A stretch of DNA of 64,000 bases from a virus. Made by a program: the position numbers and the translations under genes. The stretch is taken from positions 62,268 to 126,267 of IMG/VR virus record IMGVR_UViG_3300022902_000004; one strand, written 5' to 3'. Below are positions 10,749-54,674 of this stretch, piece by piece; position 1 is the first letter of the stretch, and each line of letters starts with the position of its first letter. Under the pieces are notes generated by a model. The model did not search any database. It saw nothing but the letters and a program-made list of their open reading frames with translations, and was not told the DNA's origin.

Positions 10749-10784
10749 CGCTATGTCTCCCTCGTTATACTAAATATGGCGAGG

Positions 10785-12672: not shown

Positions 12673-13539
12673 ATGTACATTACTAAAGAAATTTTCTCTG
12701 TCTTCAAAAAAGATGGTTCACTAAGCACACGACAAAAAATCATTTTCGTTTTTGAATGCGACTCATGTCATATGACATACAAAAAGCCTAGACACAAAGT
12801 TAGCAAATCTAAATCCGGTCTCACGTTTTGCTCTGTTTCATGTCGCCATGCGGCGAACAAAAAAGGAAATAAACTTTGTGAAAGTAGAGAAAAACATTGT
12901 ATTGAAAAATATGGCACCTCAAGTCCAACAAAATTACTGGAAACACAGGAAAAGGGACGAGCAACGCTTAGAAGAAAATATGGTGATGACGTTAGTTCTC
13001 CGCTGGCTGTTCCCGGTGCCAAGGAGAAGCGCCGGAGAACTCATCTTGAAAGATATGGTGCTGAAGAAACATTTCAAAATGAGCAATTTGTCAAGAAGCG
13101 TGCTGCAACGTGGTTGAAACGTTATGGTGTCCCATATCACCCATTCCCAAAAGATGCAAATATCAAGTCTCGACTAGCCATGGCAAAGATGCCTCATAAA
13201 TGGTCGTCCAAAGTAGAGCTTGAATATGGTGTGCTCCTCCGTGAACGCTTTGGTGCAGATGATGTTTTTGCACAAAAATGGATAAATAGGTGGCCTATCG
13301 ACTTTTATATCAAATCAATTGACACATATATTCAATTCGACGGCGTTTATTGGCACGCGCTAAATTGTTCGCTCGATGTACTCAAAGAATCAAAATCGCC
13401 ACGAGATAAAGCAAGACTAAAAAAGTGGGAAGCAGATCGAACACAAGACGAATGGTTTAGTTCGCATGATCTGCGATTAGTCAGGATCACAGATGAGGAG
13501 TTCAAGTACTCTCCTAGCCATTGTATTGACATACTATAG
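12673..13539 (+). CDS. free-standing homing-endonuclease-like protein (Zn-finger, K-YG repeats, C-terminal Vsr/PD-(D/E)xK-like FDGVYWH motif)
   Basis: AAGGAG RBS 6 nt before ATG. CxxC...CxxC N-terminus, repeated (K/R)YG modules, C-terminal PIDFYI...IQFDGVYWH. It is inserted on the opposite strand between tdk and the epimerase. Confidence 0.55.
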   Translation: MYITKEIFSVFKKDGSLSTRQKIIFVFECDSCHMTYKKPRHKVSKSKSGLTFCSVSCRHAANKKGNKLCESREKHCIEKYGTSSPTKLLETQEKGRATLRRKYGDDVSSPLAVPGAKEKRRRTHLERYGAEETFQNEQFVKKRAATWLKRYGVPYHPFPKDANIKSRLAMAKMPHKWSSKVELEYGVLLRERFGADDVFAQKWINRWPIDFYIKSIDTYIQFDGVYWHALNCSLDVLKESKSPRDKARLKKWEADRTQDEWFSSHDLRLVRITDEEFKYSPSHCIDIL

Positions 13540-16256: not shown

Positions 16257-19200
16257 CTATAGGATTTGCTTCATTTTGTATGATGCCGTGGAATGTCCCC
16301 AGTCGGCGTCGTGTTTTGTGTATGTCAGCCAAAGTGTGTAAGGCTCGACTTTTATTTTCTCTTTGCCCCAAACACGTAGCCAGGCGATTCGTGATTCATC
16401 ATCAATCACGCGGCAACGCATGAATGGTTTTCCGTTCTTCGTTTTCTTACGCTGGATCGTCTCGATACACATCCAGCCGATACCCTCATGCCCTTGTGGA
16501 ATGTCGTGCAATTTTGGAATACCTTTTGATTTCAGATGCGCCATGAGTTTAGGTGGAAATAACAGCTCAGTATTCGCAGCAGATGTTAGGTCATACGACA
16601 TTTCAACCTTTTCGGCCCGAGTCCAATCGCTGATGTCAGCAAAACGAGCCAGCTCAGTTTCTAGGAACAGCGGAGGCACTTCTCCCAACTTATTTGCTTT
16701 CTTGATCGCTGCCGCAGTCATTCCTAGGTTACCACGCTTGAGCTTAATATAATTCTTGTCGTCAGTGAGAGCAAACAGAAGCTGCCTGTAATTCAGAACA
16801 GACCCGTTGTGAATATCCTCCAATGAATCCATGGCTTCAATTTTGCAGAGCGCCTTCAATGCAGTTTTATTTGCCTTACTCAGTTTCCAGTTTCCATTTT
16901 CGTCAAAGAACATTTCATCCAAGGTTTTGAATGGACGCTCATTGATAATTTCGCGCATGGCAACCTTGCCGATCCCCTTCACGGCAGCCATTGGTGGCAC
17001 GAAAGCGTTTGCCGCCTCAGCGAATGTCCACTCGAAGTCAGAGTAATTCACGTCGACCTTTGCAATTGCATGGCCCATCTCCTTGATTTCTGCCAATGCC
17101 CTTGAAAGGCCTTTCGGGCTGCCATTCTCAGTTTCCAGAACCGTAGCCAGCCACTCCTTCTCATAGTGTGTCATCAACCAGGCACCGTAGTACGAATCGA
17201 TGGCATAAGCAATTGCGTGTGACTTGTTGAAGCCGTACAGCGAGAAATATGCAATCTTATCGAACAAGTCCTGTGCTTTCTTTCGGTTCATGCCACTTTT
17301 TTCAACACACCCATCAACAAACTTCTTTTCCAATGCCTCCTTTTCAGAAGATTTCTTTCCCAAAGACGTTAGATCCTTTTTAACCAATGTCTTCCGCATC
17401 TTGTCGGAGTCGCCTTCAGTAAACCCTGCCAATTTCACAGCAAGAAGCATGAAACTTTCCTGGAACACAATGAACCCGCATGTTTCTTCAAGCACCTCTT
17501 TGATGACAGGGTGGTCGTAAACCTGGGCAGCCGGGTTTGCCTTTGCTTTCACATAATCACGGTGAACATTTGCCTTCAATGGACCAGGACGATAGATTGC
17601 CGTCACCGCTGCCAACTCTGTCACGTTGTTTACCTGGGCATCTTTACAGAACTTCCTGGCTCCGCTCGATGTGAACTGGAAAATCCCAGGCCACTTGCCT
17701 TTTTTGTACACGTTATCAAACACCGACTGATCATCCGGATCAACATACCTGCAATTCAGCTTTTCATCATAGAATCGCTTGATATCTGCAAACGTAGGTG
17801 CTTTACCGGTCTCTTTCTTCAAGATTCGACGAATACAGTTCTCAACCATTTTCATTTGCTTGAGACCGAGGAAATCGAACTTCAAGAAACCGTTTTCCTC
17901 GAGGTTTCGAATGTTGACACCCTCTGTCCAGGGCGTCTGAAGTTCACCACGAACCTTGATCAATGGCATCGACTTTTCAAGCTCTGGACAAATCAGCACA
18001 CCACCGGCATGGCGGCCAACTGAGCGATTCATCATGAAGAGCGCCTTGATGTTGTGCTCGACGTCCGGATATTTCTCCATGAATGCCTTGTATGCTTTTG
18101 AGTATTTCATACAATCGTCATGCTTGAGCACAAACATCGACTTTTCCATGTTCGGATCACGGGATTTTCGCTCAACCTCTTTCTCCAGTGGTCCTGTGAC
18201 GGCATTTACCTCCGTGAACGGCACCCCGAAGAACTTCGAGACATCTTTTACCAACGATTTCAGCTTCAGTGTGTTGAAATTCGAGACTGGAATCACAGCA
18301 TCATCGCCGAAGAGTTCGCGAGCTGCGAAAATCAGTTCATCACGGTCACCAGCGTCAACGTCAATGTCAGGCCAACCAACACGATGACGACCAAGGAATC
18401 TGCCCCAAAGCAGACCGTGCGGAATCGGATCGACATGGGTGATGCCAAGGAGATAATTCACCAATGAACCGGCGCCAGATCCTCGTCCGGCACCCATCAA
18501 TGTTTTCTGTTCAGCGAGGTGCATTACCTTCTGCAACGTCAAGAAGTAGTTTTCAAAGCCCAGGAACTTGATGTCACTTAGCTCTGACAATGCTCTGGCA
18601 ACGTAAACCTTATCCTTCGACAGGCCTTCATCAACCAAAGCCTGCTTCACATTATCTCGGAGCTGGTCGAATGCAGACTTATCAGGCCTATCGAACGAAG
18701 GCAATTTCGCTGTGGTATCGAACCAAACCTCATCGCACATTTGCCATGCAACATCATGACCATTCTCAATTGACCCACGGACGAGATCCTCTGTCCCTTC
18801 ATACCAGTCGTACTTATCACGACATTTCAGGTATTCGTCCCACATTTGCTTTGCGTTTTTAGGGTAAAGCATGGTCTTCATTTCTTCACGTTCAGGAAGC
18901 TTGATCTCTTCTCCAACCTTCATACGACCAGGAAGCAGGTTTCGATAAATCTCACGAGCCTCCCAAAGATCAGGTCCTGGAAAGTGAGAATCAGCTGTTG
19001 AAATCAGACGTGTTCCCGTCTTCTTTGCCGCGTCAAGAACACAACGGTTCGTTAGATCCTGGGCACCCAAATCATTGAACTGCAATTCCAAGAAGAAGTT
19101 GTCAACACCCACGCAATCCGTGAAGCGGTCAATCATGTTCTCGATATTTCCAACAATCTTGCCACGAAGATTTGCATCATCAACGAGTTCCGGCTTCAAG

Positions 19201-19820
19201 CCCATGAACTTTGTATCAGGAAACTCCTGGAAAATGATTCCGGCGGGGCGACCTGAAACGCATGCCGTAGAAACTACAAGGCCTTCGCCATGCTCCTTTA
19301 GCATTTCGTAATCGATTCGAGGGAATCTATAGAACCCTTCCATGAACGATCGCTTCACCAGCGTGAACAGGTTGGCTAATCCAGTGGCATTTTTTGCAAT
19401 GACAACGAGGTGGTGACGTCGGTTTACATTGAAACCGGAGATGTCGACACGGGATTCGCCAACGTCTTCGACCACAAGACCGGCATCACTTCCGTCACCG
19501 GTTTGAGCTGTTCCCTTCTTTTTGGCGTCTTTCATAAGCGCTTTGTTTTTCGTCCACTCTTTGATAGAAGGAACGAAGTAGAATTCGACGCCGTAGATTT
19601 GACGGTATTTTTGGCCCTTCTTTTTTAGTTTCTTAGCGTGCGCGTGAGCATGTGCGAGACCGTTTCCGTTTCCGTGATCCGTTAGTGCCCAGCCATCAAG
19701 TTCATTCGATAAGCAGAAGTCGATATGCTGGTGGGGTTGCCCGAGTCCATCATACGCGCTGAACGTCGAATGAGAATGTATCGACACAAATCGATCCGGA
19801 GGAGTAAGAATACCTGTCAT
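16257..19820 (-). CDS. dnaE: DNA polymerase III alpha subunit (DnaE-type replicative polymerase, with PHP domain)
   Basis: The N-terminal PHP domain is FVSIHSHSTFSAYDG...DHGNGNG, and the palm is GAGRGSGAGSLVNYLLGITHVDP. The single continuous 1187 aa ORF shows no intein-sized insertion. Confidence 0.9.
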   Translation of the reverse strand: MTGILTPPDRFVSIHSHSTFSAYDGLGQPHQHIDFCLSNELDGWALTDHGNGNGLAHAHAHAKKLKKKGQKYRQIYGVEFYFVPSIKEWTKNKALMKDAKKKGTAQTGDGSDAGLVVEDVGESRVDISGFNVNRRHHLVVIAKNATGLANLFTLVKRSFMEGFYRFPRIDYEMLKEHGEGLVVSTACVSGRPAGIIFQEFPDTKFMGLKPELVDDANLRGKIVGNIENMIDRFTDCVGVDNFFLELQFNDLGAQDLTNRCVLDAAKKTGTRLISTADSHFPGPDLWEAREIYRNLLPGRMKVGEEIKLPEREEMKTMLYPKNAKQMWDEYLKCRDKYDWYEGTEDLVRGSIENGHDVAWQMCDEVWFDTTAKLPSFDRPDKSAFDQLRDNVKQALVDEGLSKDKVYVARALSELSDIKFLGFENYFLTLQKVMHLAEQKTLMGAGRGSGAGSLVNYLLGITHVDPIPHGLLWGRFLGRHRVGWPDIDVDAGDRDELIFAARELFGDDAVIPVSNFNTLKLKSLVKDVSKFFGVPFTEVNAVTGPLEKEVERKSRDPNMEKSMFVLKHDDCMKYSKAYKAFMEKYPDVEHNIKALFMMNRSVGRHAGGVLICPELEKSMPLIKVRGELQTPWTEGVNIRNLEENGFLKFDFLGLKQMKMVENCIRRILKKETGKAPTFADIKRFYDEKLNCRYVDPDDQSVFDNVYKKGKWPGIFQFTSSGARKFCKDAQVNNVTELAAVTAIYRPGPLKANVHRDYVKAKANPAAQVYDHPVIKEVLEETCGFIVFQESFMLLAVKLAGFTEGDSDKMRKTLVKKDLTSLGKKSSEKEALEKKFVDGCVEKSGMNRKKAQDLFDKIAYFSLYGFNKSHAIAYAIDSYYGAWLMTHYEKEWLATVLETENGSPKGLSRALAEIKEMGHAIAKVDVNYSDFEWTFAEAANAFVPPMAAVKGIGKVAMREIINERPFKTLDEMFFDENGNWKLSKANKTALKALCKIEAMDSLEDIHNGSVLNYRQLLFALTDDKNYIKLKRGNLGMTAAAIKKANKLGEVPPLFLETELARFADISDWTRAEKVEMSYDLTSAANTELLFPPKLMAHLKSKGIPKLHDIPQGHEGIGWMCIETIQRKKTKNGKPFMRCRVIDDESRIAWLRVWGKEKIKVEPYTLWLTYTKHDADWGHSTASYKMKQIL

Positions 19821-20728
19821 TTAGATTCCCAGTGTTGTATTGTGGATGAGTATCGTCCACAAAGATCATTATATTCAGTCTCGCCAATTATTTCAATTTT
19901 TACTTCAGGGTACTGTGCTTCGAACTCAGCAAACTTTTCCTTCGCTCGGGGTGTCCACCAGCCCTTCACCTCATAGTACAAATCGCCTACCTTGAAGTCC
20001 GGCGTGTATGTTCGGCCGCTTTCCAGCACGAAACTATCTGGTTCGTATTCGAACACTTTTCCTTCGTGAAGCAGGTAGCGTGCAAAATTGGCTTCCCAGC
20101 AACTACGAACATAAAAGCCCAAATCATCCCGAGTACCGCCTCTACCGAAAAACGAATGCTTGTTCCTTCCTTCACGAACTCGCTTTGCTGCCGCGATTCG
20201 CATGTTTCGTTTTGTTTTCTCGGAGTGCTTGAAGTTCTTCAGCCTTTCGCTGGTGAGTTTTCGAGCCTCAGGTGTTTTCATCCAATGCTCAACGCCGTGG
20301 TTATCAATGTACCCCTGCTTCACTTTTTCACGGAACTCGTCAGTTTTCCATCTTGCGGCTAGTTCCCGGGACATTCTTGCTTTCGTTTCATCTGGTATTT
20401 GATAGCCGCCGGCTTCACGAATCGTTTTCATCGAAGCAACCATCTTCGCGTTCTGTTCGTCAGTCCGGGTATAGCTTCCATTTGCCATTCTGGTGGCCAC
20501 CATTCCGCTCTGGACGCACGGAAAACATTTGGACACCTGTTTCTTTTTGCTGGTGTCTTGGAACGTTCCAGAGCAAACCAGGCACACCTTCTCAGTCGGT
20601 GGATGTTTCGTGTGCCTGGTTTTGTTTCTGAGCTTGTACCCGCAGGTCTTTCCGCAGGTTTTCACTGTTCCGTTTTTCGTTTCAAATTTGCACTCGCAAA
20701 CTTGGCATGTTTTGGTGTGTATCTTCAT
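19817..20728 (-). CDS. free-standing homing-endonuclease-like protein (C4 Zn finger plus C-terminal PD-(D/E)xK-like)
   Basis: CQVCECKF...CGKTCGYK, and the C-terminal TYTPDFKVGDLYYEVKGWW. Its stop overlaps the dnaE start (ATGA). Confidence 0.55.
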   Translation of the reverse strand: MKIHTKTCQVCECKFETKNGTVKTCGKTCGYKLRNKTRHTKHPPTEKVCLVCSGTFQDTSKKKQVSKCFPCVQSGMVATRMANGSYTRTDEQNAKMVASMKTIREAGGYQIPDETKARMSRELAARWKTDEFREKVKQGYIDNHGVEHWMKTPEARKLTSERLKNFKHSEKTKRNMRIAAAKRVREGRNKHSFFGRGGTRDDLGFYVRSCWEANFARYLLHEGKVFEYEPDSFVLESGRTYTPDFKVGDLYYEVKGWWTPRAKEKFAEFEAQYPEVKIEIIGETEYNDLCGRYSSTIQHWESK

Positions 20729-22217: not shown

Positions 22218-22248
22218 CTTTTGTGCGAGCTACACGATATTTAGTGGT

Positions 22249-23178
22249 ATGATACACACATTGCGTCAATTGGTCCGTGAAACATTACTTGCTGAGAAGC
22301 GTATGCAGCCCGTTGGTGGGGAACACTTGGTAAAACGATTGAATCTAGAAATCAAGAAACTTTTATCTGAACCTGACATAAAAAATGAAATGAAAGCAAA
22401 ACTGCGCGGATCGACAGGTCTTCGTGACGATGACAAACTAGAAAAATTTGTCCATGATGACATTTCGAATGCGTCACACATCGCACAACTCCATCGAAGC
22501 TCAGGATACGTCGTTATAGAGTTTTATATTTCTCAATTTTTGAACTCGGGACCAATTAGAACGATGGCCGAAAAACGTGCAGACGACATAATTCGAAAAA
22601 CATCTAAAAACTATGGATGGTCTGTTCTTTCTGCAAACCATCGAGCACCCCCAGCCAGAGAGCTTCGTTATAACCTAGAAAGAAACTATGGGAATCGTAT
22701 AAGCGAAACAGAGGAGGTGTTATATCACGTGACGCGGTCACGTGACGTAGAAAGGATCCTGCGACAAGGGCTCACCCCTCGTCAAGCATCACACGAAACC
22801 GAAGAAGATAAACAAAACGACAGAGATTCAGGAGAACAACTGCAACAAGGGCGACAATATTCGCCCCGGGTGTACGTCACACCAAGCCTTGAGCTGGCAG
22901 ACGAGCTCTCCTTTTCATTTCAGCAGGATGGTTCAGACATGGGCGAGTACGATTATGAGGACTATACGTTTCTTAGAATTGACACGAGCAAATTGTTGCC
23001 TGGAACGAAATTTTATGAAGATTCAGAATTCGCCACGTCGCGTTACAAAGGCCAGTCATTCTGGACGTATTCTAGAATCCCAGCGGTGGCACTTTCAGTT
23101 GATATCGAAAGCCTCGCCGGCTACAAAAAATACCTGCGTGAGGTTGAGGCAGCAGCGCATGAAGACCCATGGTACTAA
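22249..23178 (+). CDS. Tpt1/KptA-like (RNA 2'-phosphotransferase / ADP-ribosyltransferase fold) protein, paralog 1, with conserved N-terminal leader
   Basis: The C-domain EVLYHVTRSRDVERILRQGLTPRQ...RVYVTPSLELADE resembles KptA [34 protein letters not shown]. The N-terminal leader is TLRQLVRETLLAEKRM. Confidence 0.45.
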   Translation: MIHTLRQLVRETLLAEKRMQPVGGEHLVKRLNLEIKKLLSEPDIKNEMKAKLRGSTGLRDDDKLEKFVHDDISNASHIAQLHRSSGYVVIEFYISQFLNSGPIRTMAEKRADDIIRKTSKNYGWSVLSANHRAPPARELRYNLERNYGNRISETEEVLYHVTRSRDVERILRQGLTPRQASHETEEDKQNDRDSGEQLQQGRQYSPRVYVTPSLELADELSFSFQQDGSDMGEYDYEDYTFLRIDTSKLLPGTKFYEDSEFATSRYKGQSFWTYSRIPAVALSVDIESLAGYKKYLREVEAAAHEDPWY

Positions 23179-24119
23179 ATAGTATGCATATGATATTTAA
23201 TGGTATGCCTAGCACATTACGCCAATTAGTCCGTGAAACACTGCTCGCTGAGCGACGCATGCAGCCCATCGGAGCAGAACATCTGGTGAAACGGTTAAAT
23301 GTAGAGTTCGGCAAAATCCTAAACTCACCTGCTGTTTTGAAACAAATGAGGAATGATGCCATTGCATCAATTGGCGAGAAAGGTGATCACACCGCAATCG
23401 ATGAAATTGTCGCATTAAAAATTAAGGAAAATTCAGATCCAGTCGGAAGCCACATTGACGACGCCGGCTACATCAACGTCATCATTCGTGTTGATCGCAT
23501 TTTAGCCGACGGCCCATTCATGGATTCATTTGAAAAAAACGTCGCCGAAATGTTCAAAACAACAGTTGGGAATTATGGCTGGTCGATACAGTCACTATCT
23601 CGTTCTTGGCATTCCCGTTGGATGATGTACGTGATAGAACGAAACTATGGCGACCAACAGCTCAATATGTCAAAAAAAATATACCATTTGGCGCGGTCAC
23701 AGGACGTAAAGAAAATCCTGAAAATGGGATTAATTCCGAAAAGACCATTGCAACTCGGGAATCATGATGAAGACTCAGAACATCTCGAGGTGGGTCGACA
23801 GTACGCGCCACGCGTTTATGTCACGACAAGCCGTAAACTAGGGAAAGAGCTTGTCAGTTTGTTCAGTGAGGCTGGTGGCTATAAAGGATCAGACAATATG
23901 GAGCATTATACTTTGCTCAAGATCAAAGGCCGGAAACTTTTACATGGCACTAAGTTTTATGCTGATGCAGAATTTGTATACAGCGATAAATGGAATGATC
24001 GCTCATTTTGGACGTACTCAAGAATTCCTCCGGAAGCAATCTCAATCGACAAAAAATGGCTCGCGGAATACCAAGAGTTTATGTCCCGTGATGATGATGA
24101 CGACCCAAGCTGGCCCTAA
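23169..24119 (+). CDS. Tpt1/KptA-like protein, paralog 2 (tandem duplicate)
   Basis: IYHLARSQDVKKILKMGLIPKR...RVYVTTS, and the N-terminus STLRQLVRETLLAERRMQPIG. There is nucleotide-level identity to paralog 1 over the leader (CAATTAGTCCGTGAAACACTGCTCGCTGAG). Confidence 0.45.
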   Translation: MVLNSMHMIFNGMPSTLRQLVRETLLAERRMQPIGAEHLVKRLNVEFGKILNSPAVLKQMRNDAIASIGEKGDHTAIDEIVALKIKENSDPVGSHIDDAGYINVIIRVDRILADGPFMDSFEKNVAEMFKTTVGNYGWSIQSLSRSWHSRWMMYVIERNYGDQQLNMSKKIYHLARSQDVKKILKMGLIPKRPLQLGNHDEDSEHLEVGRQYAPRVYVTTSRKLGKELVSLFSEAGGYKGSDNMEHYTLLKIKGRKLLHGTKFYADAEFVYSDKWNDRSFWTYSRIPPEAISIDKKWLAEYQEFMSRDDDDDPSWP

Positions 24120-24454: not shown

Positions 24455-25306
24455 CTAAAAGTTTCCTCGCGCCCAACCTGATGCCAGTTTGTCGAGAACA
24501 AATGCAGATCCACCGAATATATCATATGCCTGCTTGAGCCATGCCGCCGGGCCGGCCAACGATGTTAATGAGGATCCAATAAGTTTGCCGACCATATCAC
24601 CCAGCATGCCAATCAACATATCAGTTAATTCATCAACGATTATGTCTTTGACGCCTTGCGCTGCAGCTCTGGTAATGTCCCCTGCTGTCATTTCATGTAT
24701 TTTTCTTAATACTGGCATAACATTTTCGGCAAGCCAACTAAATCCAAGCAGGCCGGCTGCTGCCGTCAACAATCCTTTCCACCCAGATGCCTGCATGTTA
24801 TCCCTAGCATTTTCCAATTTTGCTATAAGAGCCTTAACGATTTTTGAAACTGGTCCCATATTTAGCTCGTCCAGCCTTTTTATGAGCTTGTGCAAGTACT
24901 TCAAAATAGTCTTGGCTCTTTTCTTCATTAACTGTTGCAAACCGTTTTTGAAAGTATCAAGCTTGTCTGGATCTGTAACTGCCGCCGCCATGGCTGCTAT
25001 AACACCTTTTGCATTTCTTCCATAGGTTTTTAATGCGTTAGCCGGGACAGCGGCTTTCTGCTTGATGTTTTCAATACTGTCACCAACAAACTCAGCAGCA
25101 GATGACCACCATCCTTCAAATAGGAAATGTTCACGGAGTATGTACACTTGGAGCTTATTGTTTCCGCGAGACTCTACAAGAACATTCCGATCAATACCCA
25201 GGACACGCGTTACATATGCTTCATTAAATTGATGCTTAAGCGCTGAATCTGCGATTAGTGTTTCATTTACAAATCGCCGCAAGTTACTATTCATCGGTAC
25301 TTTCAT
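24455..25306 (-). CDS. hypothetical protein (283 aa) carrying leader-like N-terminus
   Basis: N-terminus MKVPMNSNLRRFVNETLIAD. Confidence 0.45.
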   Translation of the reverse strand: MKVPMNSNLRRFVNETLIADSALKHQFNEAYVTRVLGIDRNVLVESRGNNKLQVYILREHFLFEGWWSSAAEFVGDSIENIKQKAAVPANALKTYGRNAKGVIAAMAAAVTDPDKLDTFKNGLQQLMKKRAKTILKYLHKLIKRLDELNMGPVSKIVKALIAKLENARDNMQASGWKGLLTAAAGLLGFSWLAENVMPVLRKIHEMTAGDITRAAAQGVKDIIVDELTDMLIGMLGDMVGKLIGSSLTSLAGPAAWLKQAYDIFGGSAFVLDKLASGWARGNF

Positions 25307-25580
25307 CCTGCTTTATCTTCTTTGCAGCAGACTTTAGCAGCGGAAATATCCTGGTGATGTCATCTCCTGCATTCAAAATCGCTATAAAGAACTCGGCAAT
25401 TATATTATCTTGCAATCTGGACCTATCGCTAGTCGTCATCGCTTGCATCAGCTTTTGTTTGTTAATTTTTTGTCCTAGGCCCAATTTCGTGATGACCGAT
25501 GACAATTCATCATTTGTGTTTACTTGTTCAGTCAACGTTTTTCGAATAATATTTGTTAGCTGTCGTCTTGTGAATTTCAT
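25287..25580 (-). CDS. small protein of the leader family (97 aa)
   Basis: N-terminus MKFTRRQLTNIIRKTLTEQ. Confidence 0.35.
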   Translation of the reverse strand: MKFTRRQLTNIIRKTLTEQVNTNDELSSVITKLGLGQKINKQKLMQAMTTSDRSRLQDNIIAEFFIAILNAGDDITRIFPLLKSAAKKIKQDESTDE

Positions 25581-25610
25581 GAAAATCCTCTTTTAGCTAA
25601 ATATCCGGAG

Positions 25611-34235: not shown

Positions 34236-34562
34236 TCATCCGCATGCATAATCTGACGACCTATAATCCTCGTCACAGGTACCATAGTTACGAAGTGCCG
34301 TTTCGGCATAATCATATATGGCGTCGTCCGACATTCCGGCCTTGTCCAGGAGATACATAGCTTGCCGGTGCTGATCGTCGTACTCGTCGCCTGTGATGTT
34401 AACCTCGTTGGCGAGATGTTCGAGGGCTTCCTGGTATCCTGGATCATTATTCATCGCGGCAGGGTTCTCAGAGTGCACAACTAAAACACGATATGGACCA
34501 CTTAGTTGGTCTTCTACAGATTCTCGGATCAGTCGCCGGAGCTGGTTTTTTGTAATTTTCAT
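34236..34562 (-). CDS. leader-family small acidic protein A
   Basis: N-terminus MKITKNQLRRLIRE, then a unique acidic body. Confidence 0.45.
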   Translation of the reverse strand: MKITKNQLRRLIRESVEDQLSGPYRVLVVHSENPAAMNNDPGYQEALEHLANEVNITGDEYDDQHRQAMYLLDKAGMSDDAIYDYAETALRNYGTCDEDYRSSDYACG

Positions 34563-34951
34563 GTGGCGTTTCTCTTCGGTGTAGGTTGCTCGGTATGGAT
34601 GTGCCAGTCACGATATTCATCCGCTGACATATCATCGTCATCGTAGTCATCACGTTCGCCGGTGTAACCGAATGTGTCAACAATCCACTCAGCGTTTTCA
34701 GTCGCTGTTTCTTCATCAGCACCTGCACCTTCAAACGCGCGTGCTATGTCCATGACATGTGCGGTGTAGTCGTCGTTGGCGAACATGACAGCCAACGCCG
34801 ATGCCGCCTCTTCAGATTCCGGGGAACCCTGAGTGGCAGACATAAAGTTATATGTGTGCGTACGCTCGTCATCTTCATCATCTCCAGGCATCATATGTGG
34901 CATTGTCTGCTCTCGGATCAATCGTCGAAGCTGGTTTGGCGTGATTTTCAT
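34559..34951 (-). CDS. leader-family small acidic protein B
   Basis: N-terminus MKITPNQLRRLIRE; 4-nt overlap with A. Confidence 0.45.
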   Translation of the reverse strand: MKITPNQLRRLIREQTMPHMMPGDDEDDERTHTYNFMSATQGSPESEEAASALAVMFANDDYTAHVMDIARAFEGAGADEETATENAEWIVDTFGYTGERDDYDDDDMSADEYRDWHIHTEQPTPKRNAT

Positions 34952-34954
34952 TGT

Positions 34955-35305
34955 TTATTCCTCAAAGAATTGGTGAAAGATTTCTTCTGCCTGCCATGCG
35001 TCATCTTCATCAAAACCCATGGCCTCTGCTAGCTCCTCTAGCACACCTTCCCAAGATTGCCCCCAGGAAAGCCGACCGTCTGTTCCGACTTGACCGTAGC
35101 CCATCCCACGACCTCCGCTGAATTCGCCTTCATCTTCATGGCGCTGAAATTCTTTGACGATATAATCTACGACCTCAGGCTGAAGACTTAATTCGCGGGC
35201 TTTGGCGTGGGCCTCTTGCGGTGTCATAGCCCGGTCGGATGATGTTGTGTAGCGTGAAACTTGCTCACGAATTAGTCGACGTAGTTGGTTTTTTGTAACT
35301 TTCAT
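34955..35305 (-). CDS. leader-family small acidic protein C
   Basis: N-terminus MKVTKNQLRRLIRE. Confidence 0.45.
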   Translation of the reverse strand: MKVTKNQLRRLIREQVSRYTTSSDRAMTPQEAHAKARELSLQPEVVDYIVKEFQRHEDEGEFSGGRGMGYGQVGTDGRLSWGQSWEGVLEELAEAMGFDEDDAWQAEEIFHQFFEE

Positions 35306-35324: not shown

Positions 35325-35861
35325 CTAAATATCTGACAACTTCACAGCATGAGTTTTAATTACGAAAATCAAATATTTCATCAGTGCTGTCGCATCATCC
35401 TCAGACAATTCGACTGAAACATCACGCCAGGAAGACGACGAGAAGTTACGGCCCCCTGTATACCCAAGAACACGACCATCCTTCTTCTTAACGAGAAAGG
35501 CCTTGAGGTGGTGACTTTGTGTCAGGAACCAGGAGACATTCGGCCATGCATCGAAATGGGCATTATTCCTTGCGTCCCTCTTCTTGGATTTTGCAATGCA
35601 ATGTTCACAATCAGGAGTACAGATGATCGGGTCGCTCTCTGAGAGCAGGAAAATCACCTTCTTACCTTTATTTGACAAACCTAGAATCTTCTGGGGACGA
35701 CGATCAAAACTATACTTAGCTGCCGTGTTCTCACCGGTGTCTGAGATTCCAGCGTACATTCCATACGTCGAAATCATGATCGTTTCGGTGTCTTCCTGGG
35801 ATGCCTCCCAAAGAATTGTGTCCCAGTATTCTTGGCTGTCGGTAATCATTACTTTTTCCAC
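35325..35861 (-). CDS. hypothetical protein (178 aa), weak PLD/HKD-like segment
   Basis: HHLKAFLVKKKDGRVLGYTGGRNFS is loosely HxK..D..G.xN. It is not convincing. Confidence 0.35.
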   Translation of the reverse strand: MEKVMITDSQEYWDTILWEASQEDTETIMISTYGMYAGISDTGENTAAKYSFDRRPQKILGLSNKGKKVIFLLSESDPIICTPDCEHCIAKSKKRDARNNAHFDAWPNVSWFLTQSHHLKAFLVKKKDGRVLGYTGGRNFSSSSWRDVSVELSEDDATALMKYLIFVIKTHAVKLSDI

Positions 35862-36379
35862 GGGATTGTGCGGGCATCCTGGGTGTCGAAATCATACACG
35901 TAAACTTCGATGCCCTTGGCGATCAACTCTTCATTCACGATTTTCTCAATCTCTGACCATTTGCCGCCAGCCAGACCACAACCAATTCGAGGCATGTGAA
36001 CTGAGGCATGCATGACACCTGCATATGCAGCAACCTTTGATAAGCAGGAAGCTAAGGCATCATAACGAATCGGCGGGATGGCATCTTTCGTAAAGATGCC
36101 ATGCTGTGCAATCATGTTTACGACCGTGATTCCGTCAGATGATTCAACATATTGAACTTCGCCCAGACTCAGACGAGGCTGGCCTAGATGAGCTTCAGGA
36201 GGGTTTCCTTGATACCAGCTTCTGTACGCAGTTTCTGCAGCAGGATGTTCCTTCGATAAAGACAGGACAAATCCGCGGCCCCACCCGCCAATATCGTTGC
36301 AGATATGCGTGATTAGTTTCGTGCCTTCACCGATTGGTTTTGTGGCGTCGCCGTTGACATACTTGATTTCATTTTTCAT
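35849..36379 (-). CDS. macro domain protein, TARG1/OARD1-like (ADP-ribose / ADP-ribosyl-hydrolase family)
   Basis: GDATKPIGEGTKLITHICNDIGGWGRGFV and SVHMPRIGCGLAGGKWSEIEKIV match the TARG1 signatures (HCISEDCRMGAGIA; DLSMPRIGCGLDRLQWENV). Ends with EVYVYDFD. Confidence 0.8.
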   Translation of the reverse strand: MKNEIKYVNGDATKPIGEGTKLITHICNDIGGWGRGFVLSLSKEHPAAETAYRSWYQGNPPEAHLGQPRLSLGEVQYVESSDGITVVNMIAQHGIFTKDAIPPIRYDALASCLSKVAAYAGVMHASVHMPRIGCGLAGGKWSEIEKIVNEELIAKGIEVYVYDFDTQDARTIPWKK

Positions 36380-45545: not shown

Positions 45546-45793
45546 TCTTGGGTATACACGATATGTTTGCCGAATTGCACATCTTCTTTGCTGTTTTTAT
45601 TGATAGAAACCTGTGCGATTTTTGTTACAAGCTCCCCGGTGGGTGTTTGCTCAACGAAGACATATTCCTCCATCATACCAGGCCGGCACTCGGGACTTTG
45701 TTGCCAGGATCCCGGTAGAATGCCTGGCGTTGGTGGCGTCATAGTTTGCAAAACCTTGACCGCTTGGTCAAATCGTTCTTGTGTCAATAACAT
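45542..45793 (-). CDS. hypothetical small protein (83 aa)
   Basis: 4-nt overlap. Confidence 0.3.
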   Translation of the reverse strand: MLLTQERFDQAVKVLQTMTPPTPGILPGSWQQSPECRPGMMEEYVFVEQTPTGELVTKIAQVSINKNSKEDVQFGKHIVYTQE

Positions 45794-46772
45794 TCTTTAT
45801 TTCCTGTCGTTTCATTTCGATGTCGTCTGATTCCCAAACCACTATAACAGTGTATCCCATTCGTCGTAAGTTTTCACTTCGTTTGGCATCGGCAGCCCAT
45901 TTTTCTTCAGCAAGAAACGATTGGCCCCGAAGGCGCACATTGAATTTGGCTTCATAGAGTTTCGGGTTGGCATGGACATAATCACCATTGATTTCGACAA
46001 TGACCTTTTTCTTTTCGTTGAGCTCATCAGCAAAGTAGGCGCCCACTCGTTGCTCTGATACAAAGCCCAGTTTTGTCAGGCCGAGCTCTTTCCGGAGGCG
46101 TTGGTGGAGCTTTGACAACCTGTTTTTGGAACCGGCGAACATCTTACGTAATGTCGCTGCTTTTTGCGCCGGGGTTCTGTTTTTTCTCCAGTGCGCTTGT
46201 TTCTTCCTGTATGATTCCTTTTTCCAATTTCGTTTTGAACCCTTCCCTATCGCTTTCTTCCAGGTCTCGTCCATGACGACTTCACCTTTTGCCCACCTAG
46301 CTTTCATCTTCTTGGATGAACCTTTGGCGATATGGGGAAGCTGCCCGACGTTTTTGACACCGTACTTCTTCTTCACGACCTTCTTGATTTTTTCTTGTGT
46401 TTTCTTTAGTGAAAAGCCGGCGTTCAGTCCGGAGCACCTTTGTGAGCAATACGATTTTGGTTTGCCACGGACGAAAGTCACAGCCTTCTTGCAGGACTTC
46501 TCCTTACATTTGGGCTTGCCATACTTTTTGATATAGAGTTTTTCTCTTGTCTTGAATTTGTCGTGAGTAAGAGCATATCTCTTGAACACACCCCTGGCAA
46601 ATGCAGGAGGCAGATCGCAAAGCCCACAAATGCACTTTGGTGGTTTGCCATCAAGCTTGTGCTTAATGACGTAATCGACCATTTCCATTTTGTGGGCTTT
46701 GCGGAGATGAGTAGTTAGCTGTCCGCCTAAATTATCCTTGAATCCTTTTTTGCATTCTTTGCACTTGATCAT
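45768..46772 (-). CDS. free-standing homing-endonuclease-like protein (Zn fingers, K-rich, C-terminal Vsr/DUF559-like VIVEINGDYVH)
   Basis: CKECKK...H..H, CICGLC, multiple K-rich repeats, the C-terminal FADEL...VIVEINGDYVHANP. It sits next to the RNR gene. Confidence 0.5.
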   Translation of the reverse strand: MIKCKECKKGFKDNLGGQLTTHLRKAHKMEMVDYVIKHKLDGKPPKCICGLCDLPPAFARGVFKRYALTHDKFKTREKLYIKKYGKPKCKEKSCKKAVTFVRGKPKSYCSQRCSGLNAGFSLKKTQEKIKKVVKKKYGVKNVGQLPHIAKGSSKKMKARWAKGEVVMDETWKKAIGKGSKRNWKKESYRKKQAHWRKNRTPAQKAATLRKMFAGSKNRLSKLHQRLRKELGLTKLGFVSEQRVGAYFADELNEKKKVIVEINGDYVHANPKLYEAKFNVRLRGQSFLAEEKWAADAKRSENLRRMGYTVIVVWESDDIEMKRQEIKNVIDTRTI

Positions 46773-54365: not shown

Positions 54366-54632
54366 TTATTTAGTGTTTGGTGCTTTTGCATTGCCACCGG
54401 ATGCCGCGACTGCGGACTTCTTGTTTGGGTACGTTGAGTCAGTACCTAACGGGGTCGTGACACCGGCTACACCAGCACACACGCTTTGCTCTTGGGCATC
54501 TTCTTCGTTCTCTGTCGATGCGTCTGGTTCTACAAGCAATTCAGTCGACGGATCGTCATCATCACCCTTATCATAGATTTCGTGCATCCACTTTACAACT
54601 TCCCAAAGGCTCTTTTTCATGTTCTTTTTCAT
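54366..54632 (-). CDS. hypothetical small acidic protein (88 aa)
   Basis: ORF in array. Confidence 0.3.
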   Translation of the reverse strand: MKKNMKKSLWEVVKWMHEIYDKGDDDDPSTELLVEPDASTENEEDAQEQSVCAGVAGVTTPLGTDSTYPNKKSAVAASGGNAKAPNTK

Positions 54633-54674
54633 ATATCTAAATATCCTGTTGCATTCGTTTCGACAACATCATAT

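Follow-up and report, generated by a model that had tools for sequence, protein, structure and literature searches.

What does a phage gain from two adjacent genes that resemble a tRNA-processing enzyme? The question is raised by a 64,000-nt stretch of the viral record IMGVR_UViG_3300022902_000004 from IMG/VR (positions 62,268 to 126,267; hereafter the window), in which an earlier note, made from the sequence alone, had described a tandem pair of Tpt1/KptA-like genes. The two adjacent plus-strand open reading frames (ORFs) were recovered as described, at 22249-23178 (geneA, 309 aa) and 23169-24119 (geneB, 316 aa as the longest ORF). The answer at which we arrived, which taken as a whole we consider to have an even chance of being right, is that geneA and geneB are diverged members of an uncharacterised phage-borne clade with the ADP-ribosyltransferase (ART) fold, sharing ancestry with the NAD+ lobe of Tpt1/KptA. 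Their products would be expressed late, packaged in the head, cleaved and injected in the manner of Alt of phage T4, from which they differ in ART clade.

The C-terminal domain of the two proteins is, by profile comparison, related to the NAD+ lobe of Tpt1/KptA, as the earlier note had held. This domain was delimited to aa 153-284 in geneA (22705-23100, plus strand) using hhalign and family conservation, and to approximately aa 154-281 in geneB (nt 23664-24047, plus strand). A profile was built from 93 family members, which are also the basis of the conservation counts given below. When it was searched against PDB sequences with hmmsearch, Tpt1 was the best match (9ld4, E = 1.1e-7) and six more Tpt1 sequences were found with E values of 2e-4 to 1.6e-2, while DarT1, the other candidate proposed for comparison, matched more weakly than 9ld4 (E = 4.6e-3). 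In hhalign, residues 153-282 of geneA aligned to KptA 98-182 with a probability of 97.1% (E = 6.8e-11). The target was a small Tpt1 alignment of PDB sequences and a validated KptA sequence. The split beta-sheet NAD+-binding fold of the ART superfamily was present, and the solved structures nearest to the geneA fold were those of Tpt1/KptA. The AlphaFold2 model of geneA had a predicted local distance difference test score (pLDDT) of 79.6; it was confident from about residue 21, and residues 1-20 scored about 52. Among predicted viral structures in BFVD, the best matches were uncharacterised proteins of uncultured phages, with a "putative RNA 2'-phosphotransferase" of phage PaBG ranking lower. 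Single sequences gave less: geneA reached 12.8 bits against Pfam PF01885 (E = 0.12), below the cut-off of 26 bits, and its only Pfam and PHROGs matches were sub-threshold ones to PARP, DUF7002 and PTS_2-RNA, all of them ART families. No match to PF01885, or to any other Pfam or PHROGs family, was found for geneB. Some family relatives do exceed the PF01885 threshold, such as the three-copy relative P0021, with 35.5 bits.

Descent from a common lobe does not make these proteins Tpt1 enzymes. The hallmarks of Tpt1 are an RNA lobe joined to an NAD lobe, an R-H-R-R tetrad, an H-G-T motif, of which the His and Thr contact the adenosine ribose, and an H-H-V triad (PMC10415124). The key residues of the geneA domain are H160-x-T162, R202, R207, Y209, D258, F271 and T273, and those of geneB are H161, R203, Y205 and D254. 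The His of the H-G-T motif was found in both and is kept in 92 of 93 family members. Position 162 is T in 57 members, S in 16 and A in 13 (T or S in 73/93), with H-V-T in geneA and H-L-A in geneB. The second His of Tpt1 aligns to position 209, occupied by Y in 75 members, F in 13 and H in 5. The third triad position, 271, is hydrophobic as in Tpt1, and the triad is thus H-Y-h, not H-H-h. D258, present in every member (93/93), has no counterpart in Tpt1, where a small residue stands at the aligned position. Two conserved arginines, candidates for the fourth Arg of the tetrad, precede the Tyr, R207 by two residues (86/93) and R202 by seven (43/93). Both are offset from the Tpt1 Arg, which stands four residues before the His, and both would share a strand face. 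Homology of the N-terminal region to the Tpt1 RNA lobe was considered and rejected, as comparison of the first 150 residues with that lobe, a winged helix, gave an hhalign probability of only 0.4%. Because of this dissimilarity, three of the four tetrad residues (the Arg-His pair and the third Arg) could not be placed. Assignment of geneA and geneB to Tpt1 proper is not supported by these comparisons, and the KptA-specific chemistry that the earlier note derived from membership of that enzyme family goes with it.

These departures bear on the simplest explanation, that the two are ordinary cytoplasmic Tpt1/KptA RNA 2'-phosphotransferases which repair phage tRNA or other RNA by taking off the 2'-phosphates that remain after attack by host anticodon nucleases. 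The nearest structures and profiles are those of Tpt1, RNA repair with a phage-encoded KptA is known (PMC9503650), and a PNK-like gene is located about 5 kb from one distant member of the family. However, the altered triad, the foreign Asp, the lack of a recognisable RNA lobe and the low PF01885 score speak against Tpt1, and the window has neither tRNA genes nor, among its annotated genes, one for an RNA ligase, 2H or PNK. Such enzymes would also leave unexplained the leader and promoter-like motif described below, and we regard this explanation as very improbable. The suggestion that the pair serves host takeover or counter-defence rather than tRNA splicing fits a window without RNA-repair partners.

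As to chemistry, an H-Y-h triad without a canonical catalytic Glu, with two conserved arginines by the Tyr strand, favours mono-ADP-ribosyl transfer of the Tpt1/PARP10 type. The acceptor may be, for example, an RNA or DNA phosphate or base, and could also be a protein. The R, Ser-Thr-Ser and Glu-x-Glu motifs of T4 Alt, ModA and ModB are absent from the invariant residues of geneA and geneB. The lack of a canonical catalytic Glu is also compatible, in place of a transferase that acts on macromolecules, with an NAD+-consuming hydrolase or phosphorylase, or with a catalytically dead binder of NAD or ADP-ribose that might, for instance, soak up host immune signals. NADases with the ART fold and NAD+ phosphorylases of the RES type are known (PMC9503650), and geneB lacks the Thr of the H-x-T pair. 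We consider this option improbable.

The chief new finding lies in the first residues of the proteins. GeneA and geneB are paralogs with a common leader, as had been noticed before: a BLASTP alignment spanning 299 aa shows 41% identity (E = 4e-74), the first 34 residues agree at 28 positions, and TLRQLVRETLLAE in the leader is identical between them. The leader had been described as conserved at the nucleotide level, which was taken as a sign of recent duplication, and this could not be upheld. Among the first 34 codons 19 differ, 13 of these synonymously, and because of this the leader appears to be under selection as a peptide, its DNA not being freshly copied. Recent duplication and gene conversion of the leader were both ruled out by the synonymous differences. 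Phages with geneA orthologs 84-93% identical (L001, L007, L106) carry a single copy only, and geneB is slightly nearer to the geneA clade (41-43% identity) than to other clades (29-39%). From these identities and the single-copy relatives, geneB is an old or fast-diverging paralog. The same pair was present on a 26-kb JGI contig, from essentially the same phage.

Nor is the leader a mere by-product of duplication; it is a tag common to unrelated genes and resembles the capsid-targeting sequence (CTS) of T4. In geneA the leader, MIHTLRQLVRETLLAE, occupies aa 1-16 (22249-22296, plus strand), ahead of a helical and ferredoxin-like region (approximately aa 21-150), the ART domain and a C-terminal helix. 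Candidate prohead-protease sites follow Glu residues at VRE↓T and LAE↓K. In both proteins it contains LVRE↓TLLAE↓, and thus an N-terminal (L/I/V)-x-Glu propeptide motif of the kind found in T4-type capsid-targeted head proteins. The seven-residue core LR[RQ][LF][IV][RN]E had six matches in the six-frame translation of the window, where shuffled sequences predicted 0.0. All six lay 4-9 residues past the start Met of a real gene, and the genes belonged to three unrelated families: the two ARTs, a 283-aa protein, and three tandem small acidic paralogs. The 283-aa protein (24455-25306, minus strand; leader MKVPMNSNLRRFVNETLIAD) has a hydrophobic, Gly-rich C-terminal half and is unrelated to the ARTs. 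The acidic paralogs (108, 130 and 116 aa; 34236-35305, minus strand) each start with MK(I/V)T(K/P)NQLRRLIRE. Looser leaders were found in a 97-aa gene (25287-25580, minus strand; weaker leader-like N-terminus MKFTRRQLTNIIRKTLTEQ) and a 290-aa gene (29897-30769, plus strand; leader MTSEHDYLVRFINEVLTDD), and at least eight genes of the window, from several unrelated families, carry such a leader. Their consensus is approximately MK(I/V)T..QLRRLIRE or LR(R/Q)(F/L)(I/V)(N/R)ETL. From this distribution, the leader looks like a genome-wide tag for capsid targeting and protease cleavage.

In T4, propeptides of 10-20 residues bring unrelated internal proteins into the prohead core, where the gp21 protease cuts after Glu, and Alt, itself an ART, is packaged in the head and cleaved by gp21 at ITE-6 and LTE-619 (PMC9026906, PMC5694885). 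The T4 CTS reads MKTYQEFIAE (PMC8442874). Homologs of the 283-aa protein carry LLQEFIAE, and one of them, P0158, starts with MKLLQEFIAE. In another phage (L004, 1-1824 and 9458-12046) a homolog of the same protein lies between a gene with an RF-1/PCRF domain and a GH25 lysozyme gene, and is followed by a leader-tagged 87-aa gene; that contig also encodes NAMPT and an NMNAT-Nudix protein, both of NAD+ salvage. The acidic trio, with identical leaders and otherwise diverged sequences, recalls the diverse internal proteins of T-even phages. T-even internal proteins are anti-restriction factors.

The window itself has no head genes, and the machinery that such a tag would need was found in a close relative, IMGVR_UViG_3300031603_000002, in which the ART is 85% identical and the neighbouring large protein 92%. 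Its contig encodes a Portal_T4/gp20 protein (2.4e-72), a Peptidase_S77/gp21 protease (5.8e-25; L092 5959-6579), a Gp23 capsid protein (1.5e-77) and a T4-type terminase, together with tail genes (two tail sheath paralogs of about 1,000 aa, a tail tube and a baseplate hub). The gp21-family protease and scaffold on which T4-type capsid targeting depends were thus both present in the relative. KKLRRMVRE↓AAED occurs in the acidic scaffold-like protein and GQVIRE↓ASS at residue 60 of the capsid protein, so that an (I/V)RE motif is common to scaffold and capsid. T4 gp23 is cleaved at residue 65. Leader-tagged small genes, starting with MKITKTQLRKLIRE, TLTRFINETLESD and MKITKRSLARLVTE, directly follow the capsid gene; the leader-tagged genes of the relative lie at L091 3701-4318, 4371-4613, 6887-7369 and 9264-9983 (minus strand), and at L092 6987-7538. 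Given the (I/V)RE motifs of scaffold and capsid and the tagged genes beside the capsid gene, the leader core is a likely protease site of this phage. The portal gene of the relative is interrupted by an intein with an HNH domain (sheath paralogs and portal intein: L011 4587-10864, L092 2089-5151).

A second shared element lies upstream of the genes. GATATTTAG (22236-22244, plus strand) stands 4 nt before the ATG of geneA, and GATATTTAA (23192-23200, plus strand) stands 4 nt before an ATG at 23205 in geneB. Since GATATTTAA-N4-ATG mirrors the arrangement before geneA and its orthologs, this ATG is most likely the true start of geneB, which would then encode 304 aa (23205-24119, plus strand) rather than the 316 aa counted from 23169. 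The pattern GATATTTAR had six exact matches in the window against 0.74 expected, a count reached in 0 of 100 shuffles, and all six were in sense orientation immediately upstream of a start codon. The other four lie on the minus strand, at 25597-25605 (reading GATATTTAG, upstream of the 97-aa gene), 27745-27753, 35325-35333 (GATATTTAG again, upstream of the acidic trio) and 54637-54645. In four of the six cases (geneA, geneB, an endonuclease gene starting at 27740 and an 88-aa acidic gene starting at 54632) the distance to the ATG is exactly 4 nt, which implies a leaderless or nearly leaderless mRNA. ART orthologs with no more than 40-85% identity keep the motif, 4-7 nt upstream of their ATG. 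Looser ATATTTA(G/T) sites were found at 10777 (minus strand) and at 29869-29876 (plus strand; ATATTTAT, before the 290-aa gene, which also has a Shine-Dalgarno sequence), and in the relative such sites stand upstream of genes for the head-tail adaptor, the core and the tail. We infer that GATATTTAR is a late-type promoter yielding nearly leaderless transcripts. A scan for sigma-70 promoters and terminators around geneA and geneB found nothing above chance.

Taken together, leader and motif suggest the following course of events. Each gene would be transcribed from its own late-type promoter, and the N-terminal 11-16 residues would act as a T4-style capsid-targeting propeptide, through which the protein would enter the prohead's scaffolding core. 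A gp21-type protease would then cut the propeptide after Glu, at VRE↓T, LAE↓K or both. The mature enzymes would ride in the head with the DNA, be injected at infection and ADP-ribosylate a host target at the expense of host NAD+, and the two diverged copies could differ in specificity, like Alt, ModA and ModB of T4. In a survey of phage ARTs, delivery in the manner of Alt was considered possible for many myovirus enzymes, and KptA homologs were reported from phages (PMC9503650).

Several observations weigh against this course of events. GeneA and geneB are located within a block of replication and nucleotide-metabolism genes, outside a head module, and the T4-type head genes are on the contig of the relative and not in the window. 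The promoter is called "late" for no other reason than that the motif also stands before structural genes. As a short amphipathic helix, the leader carries modest information, and its core pattern was drawn up once the matches were known. GeneB carries Ala where Tpt1 has the Thr that binds the adenosine ribose. Finally, even very distant members of the family have kept the (L/S)E(R/K)(R/K)xQP that makes up the second half of the leader, and this half might be a structural or catalytic element rather than part of a disposable propeptide. In a set of 141 family members, h-x-E-x-[KRH]-x1-3-P occurred within the first 40 residues in 46, as against 1-3 in controls.

The last point leads to a different account of the leader, as an integral helix of the enzyme in which the basic residues of ER(R/K)xQP serve the active site, much as LRHxP does in Tpt1, where the catalytic Arg-His stands at the end of the first helix and is followed by Pro. 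The proteins would then act late in the producing cell, and the similar N-termini of other genes would be coincidence or reflect some other common function, such as binding of a shared partner. The many sources of the 46 family members with the motif agree with this. However, the N-termini of Tpt1 and of the family remained unaligned in the profile comparison, and residues 1-20 of the model were of low confidence and apart from the confident body. The account would also have to accommodate the first half of the leader in three unrelated families of the same genome and in head-module genes, scaffold and capsid of the relative, and the near-copy of the T4 CTS on P0158, a homolog of a leader-tagged protein. 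We hold it to be unlikely, if less so than the two alternatives discussed earlier.

If the leader is a T4-type CTS, its implications go beyond these two genes. Injected effectors of uncultured T4-type and jumbo phages could be sought with a simple sequence rule, the CTS system would reach far beyond the T-even phages, and the pair would offer an ART scaffold that is new, probably with a new substrate. A more far-reaching possibility, which we put forward tentatively, is a regulon of late effectors with a T4-like CTS that comprises the two ARTs, a membrane-active 283-aa protein, the acidic proteins and perhaps a second ART. In that case geneA and geneB would be the first Tpt1-like enzymes to be delivered by a virion, ADP-ribosylating ends or bases of host RNA or DNA against a host process or defence, and a macrodomain protein might reverse or limit the mark. 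The candidate for a second ART is the 290-aa protein, the product of a third counter-oriented gene, which contains strings resembling the R-S-ExE signature of Alt and C3-type ARTs (LYRGIS, SSWT and GEREV), all kept in its sole homolog, which is 55% identical. It may be an ART of this different (R-S-E) kind. No match to it was found in Pfam, PDB or PHROGs, and an AlphaFold2 model from two sequences had a pLDDT of 33. An identical copy is present on a 318-kb contig, which indicates that the phage is probably a jumbo phage. The macrodomain protein (35849-36379, minus strand), encoded two genes upstream of the acidic trio, matched PDB entries 2afc, 2fg1 and 5e3b with E values of 4.7e-54 to 3.8e-47, and more weakly the ALC1 macro domain, Poa1p and TARG1. 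It might remove ADP-ribose marks set by the phage itself, or DarT-type marks set by the host.

Most genes around geneA and geneB are on the minus strand and belong to replication and nucleotide metabolism, with the two ART ORFs placed on the plus strand inside the block. The stop of geneB overlaps by 4 nt (24116-24119) that of a convergent 112-aa gene on the minus strand, which leaves no space for a terminator between them. The block includes genes for a DnaE-type polymerase, RNR, a DnaB-like helicase, UvsX, a ligase, ThyX, a nucleoside deoxyribosyltransferase and several homing-endonuclease-like proteins. The polymerase used by this phage with its T4-type head and tail (PolIII alpha type; 16257-19820, minus strand) showed only about 25-28% identity to any homolog from a cultured phage. 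The homing-endonuclease-like genes are dispersed through the block, at 12673-13539 (plus strand) and at 19817-20728, 26916-27773 and 45768-46772 (minus strand), and represent the families DUF7487, Phage_endo_I, NUMOD3, TnsA-like and DUF559.

Near homologs of the ARTs are rare, with nine found in 5.8 billion proteins. Neither megablast nor tblastn matched the region or geneA to any of 50,697 phage records, and tblastn with a minimal family member (P0066) matched only an uncultured 735-kb phage. The profile search recovered 439 relatives at E<=1e-3 among 1.84 billion cluster representatives, with a common core at approximately residues 110-290. This uncharacterised ART family is thus large, yet almost absent from cultured phages. 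Two or three ART modules are fused in a single chain in some relatives, and others carry Macro, polyvalent-protein kinase, PARP-like or papain-fold toxin domains (fused, multi-copy or domain-joined members: P0015 at L104 2154-3704, P0019, P0021, P0050 and P0070). Tandem multiplication of the ART module is a recurring theme in the family.

Among known systems, Tpt1/KptA/TRPT1 (PF01885) is the best match by structure and profile, sharing the NAD+-lobe fold and the motifs LYHxT...IL..GL.P, the R..(V/I)(Y/H)(L/V) strand, ID...L..G.KFY and the (V)W strand. Unlike these enzymes, geneA and geneB have an acidic insert of about 25 residues before the Tyr strand, about 150 unrelated N-terminal residues with the leader, and D258 in the region of the acceptor loop. 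The PARP10/11/15-type mono-ARTs, with H-Y-(I/L), and DarT have a fold similarity far below that of Tpt1, and there is no family membership at the sequence level. In proposed logic the pair is closest to T4 Alt, a late ART with an N-terminal propeptide that is cleaved by gp21 after Glu and injected, the packaging of geneA and geneB being the inferred part of the likeness. Alt, ModA and ModB are paralogs with different targets, and geneA and geneB are likewise paralogs. Alt is, however, an R-S-E (cholera-toxin-like) protein ART of about 76 kDa, whereas geneA and geneB, at about 35 kDa, are Tpt1-like and have an H-Y-h triad. The tag itself resembles that of T4 IPI, IPII and IPIII, where a short sequence ending in (I/L/V)-x-E is borne by unrelated small proteins, some of them acidic, in paralog sets, and in P0158 the N-terminus agrees with the T4 CTS in 8 of 10 residues. 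It differs from the tag of the T4 internal proteins in its consensus, (T/Q)LR(R/Q)(L/F)(I/V)(R/N)E, with a length of 11-16 residues, and in a cargo that includes enzymes.

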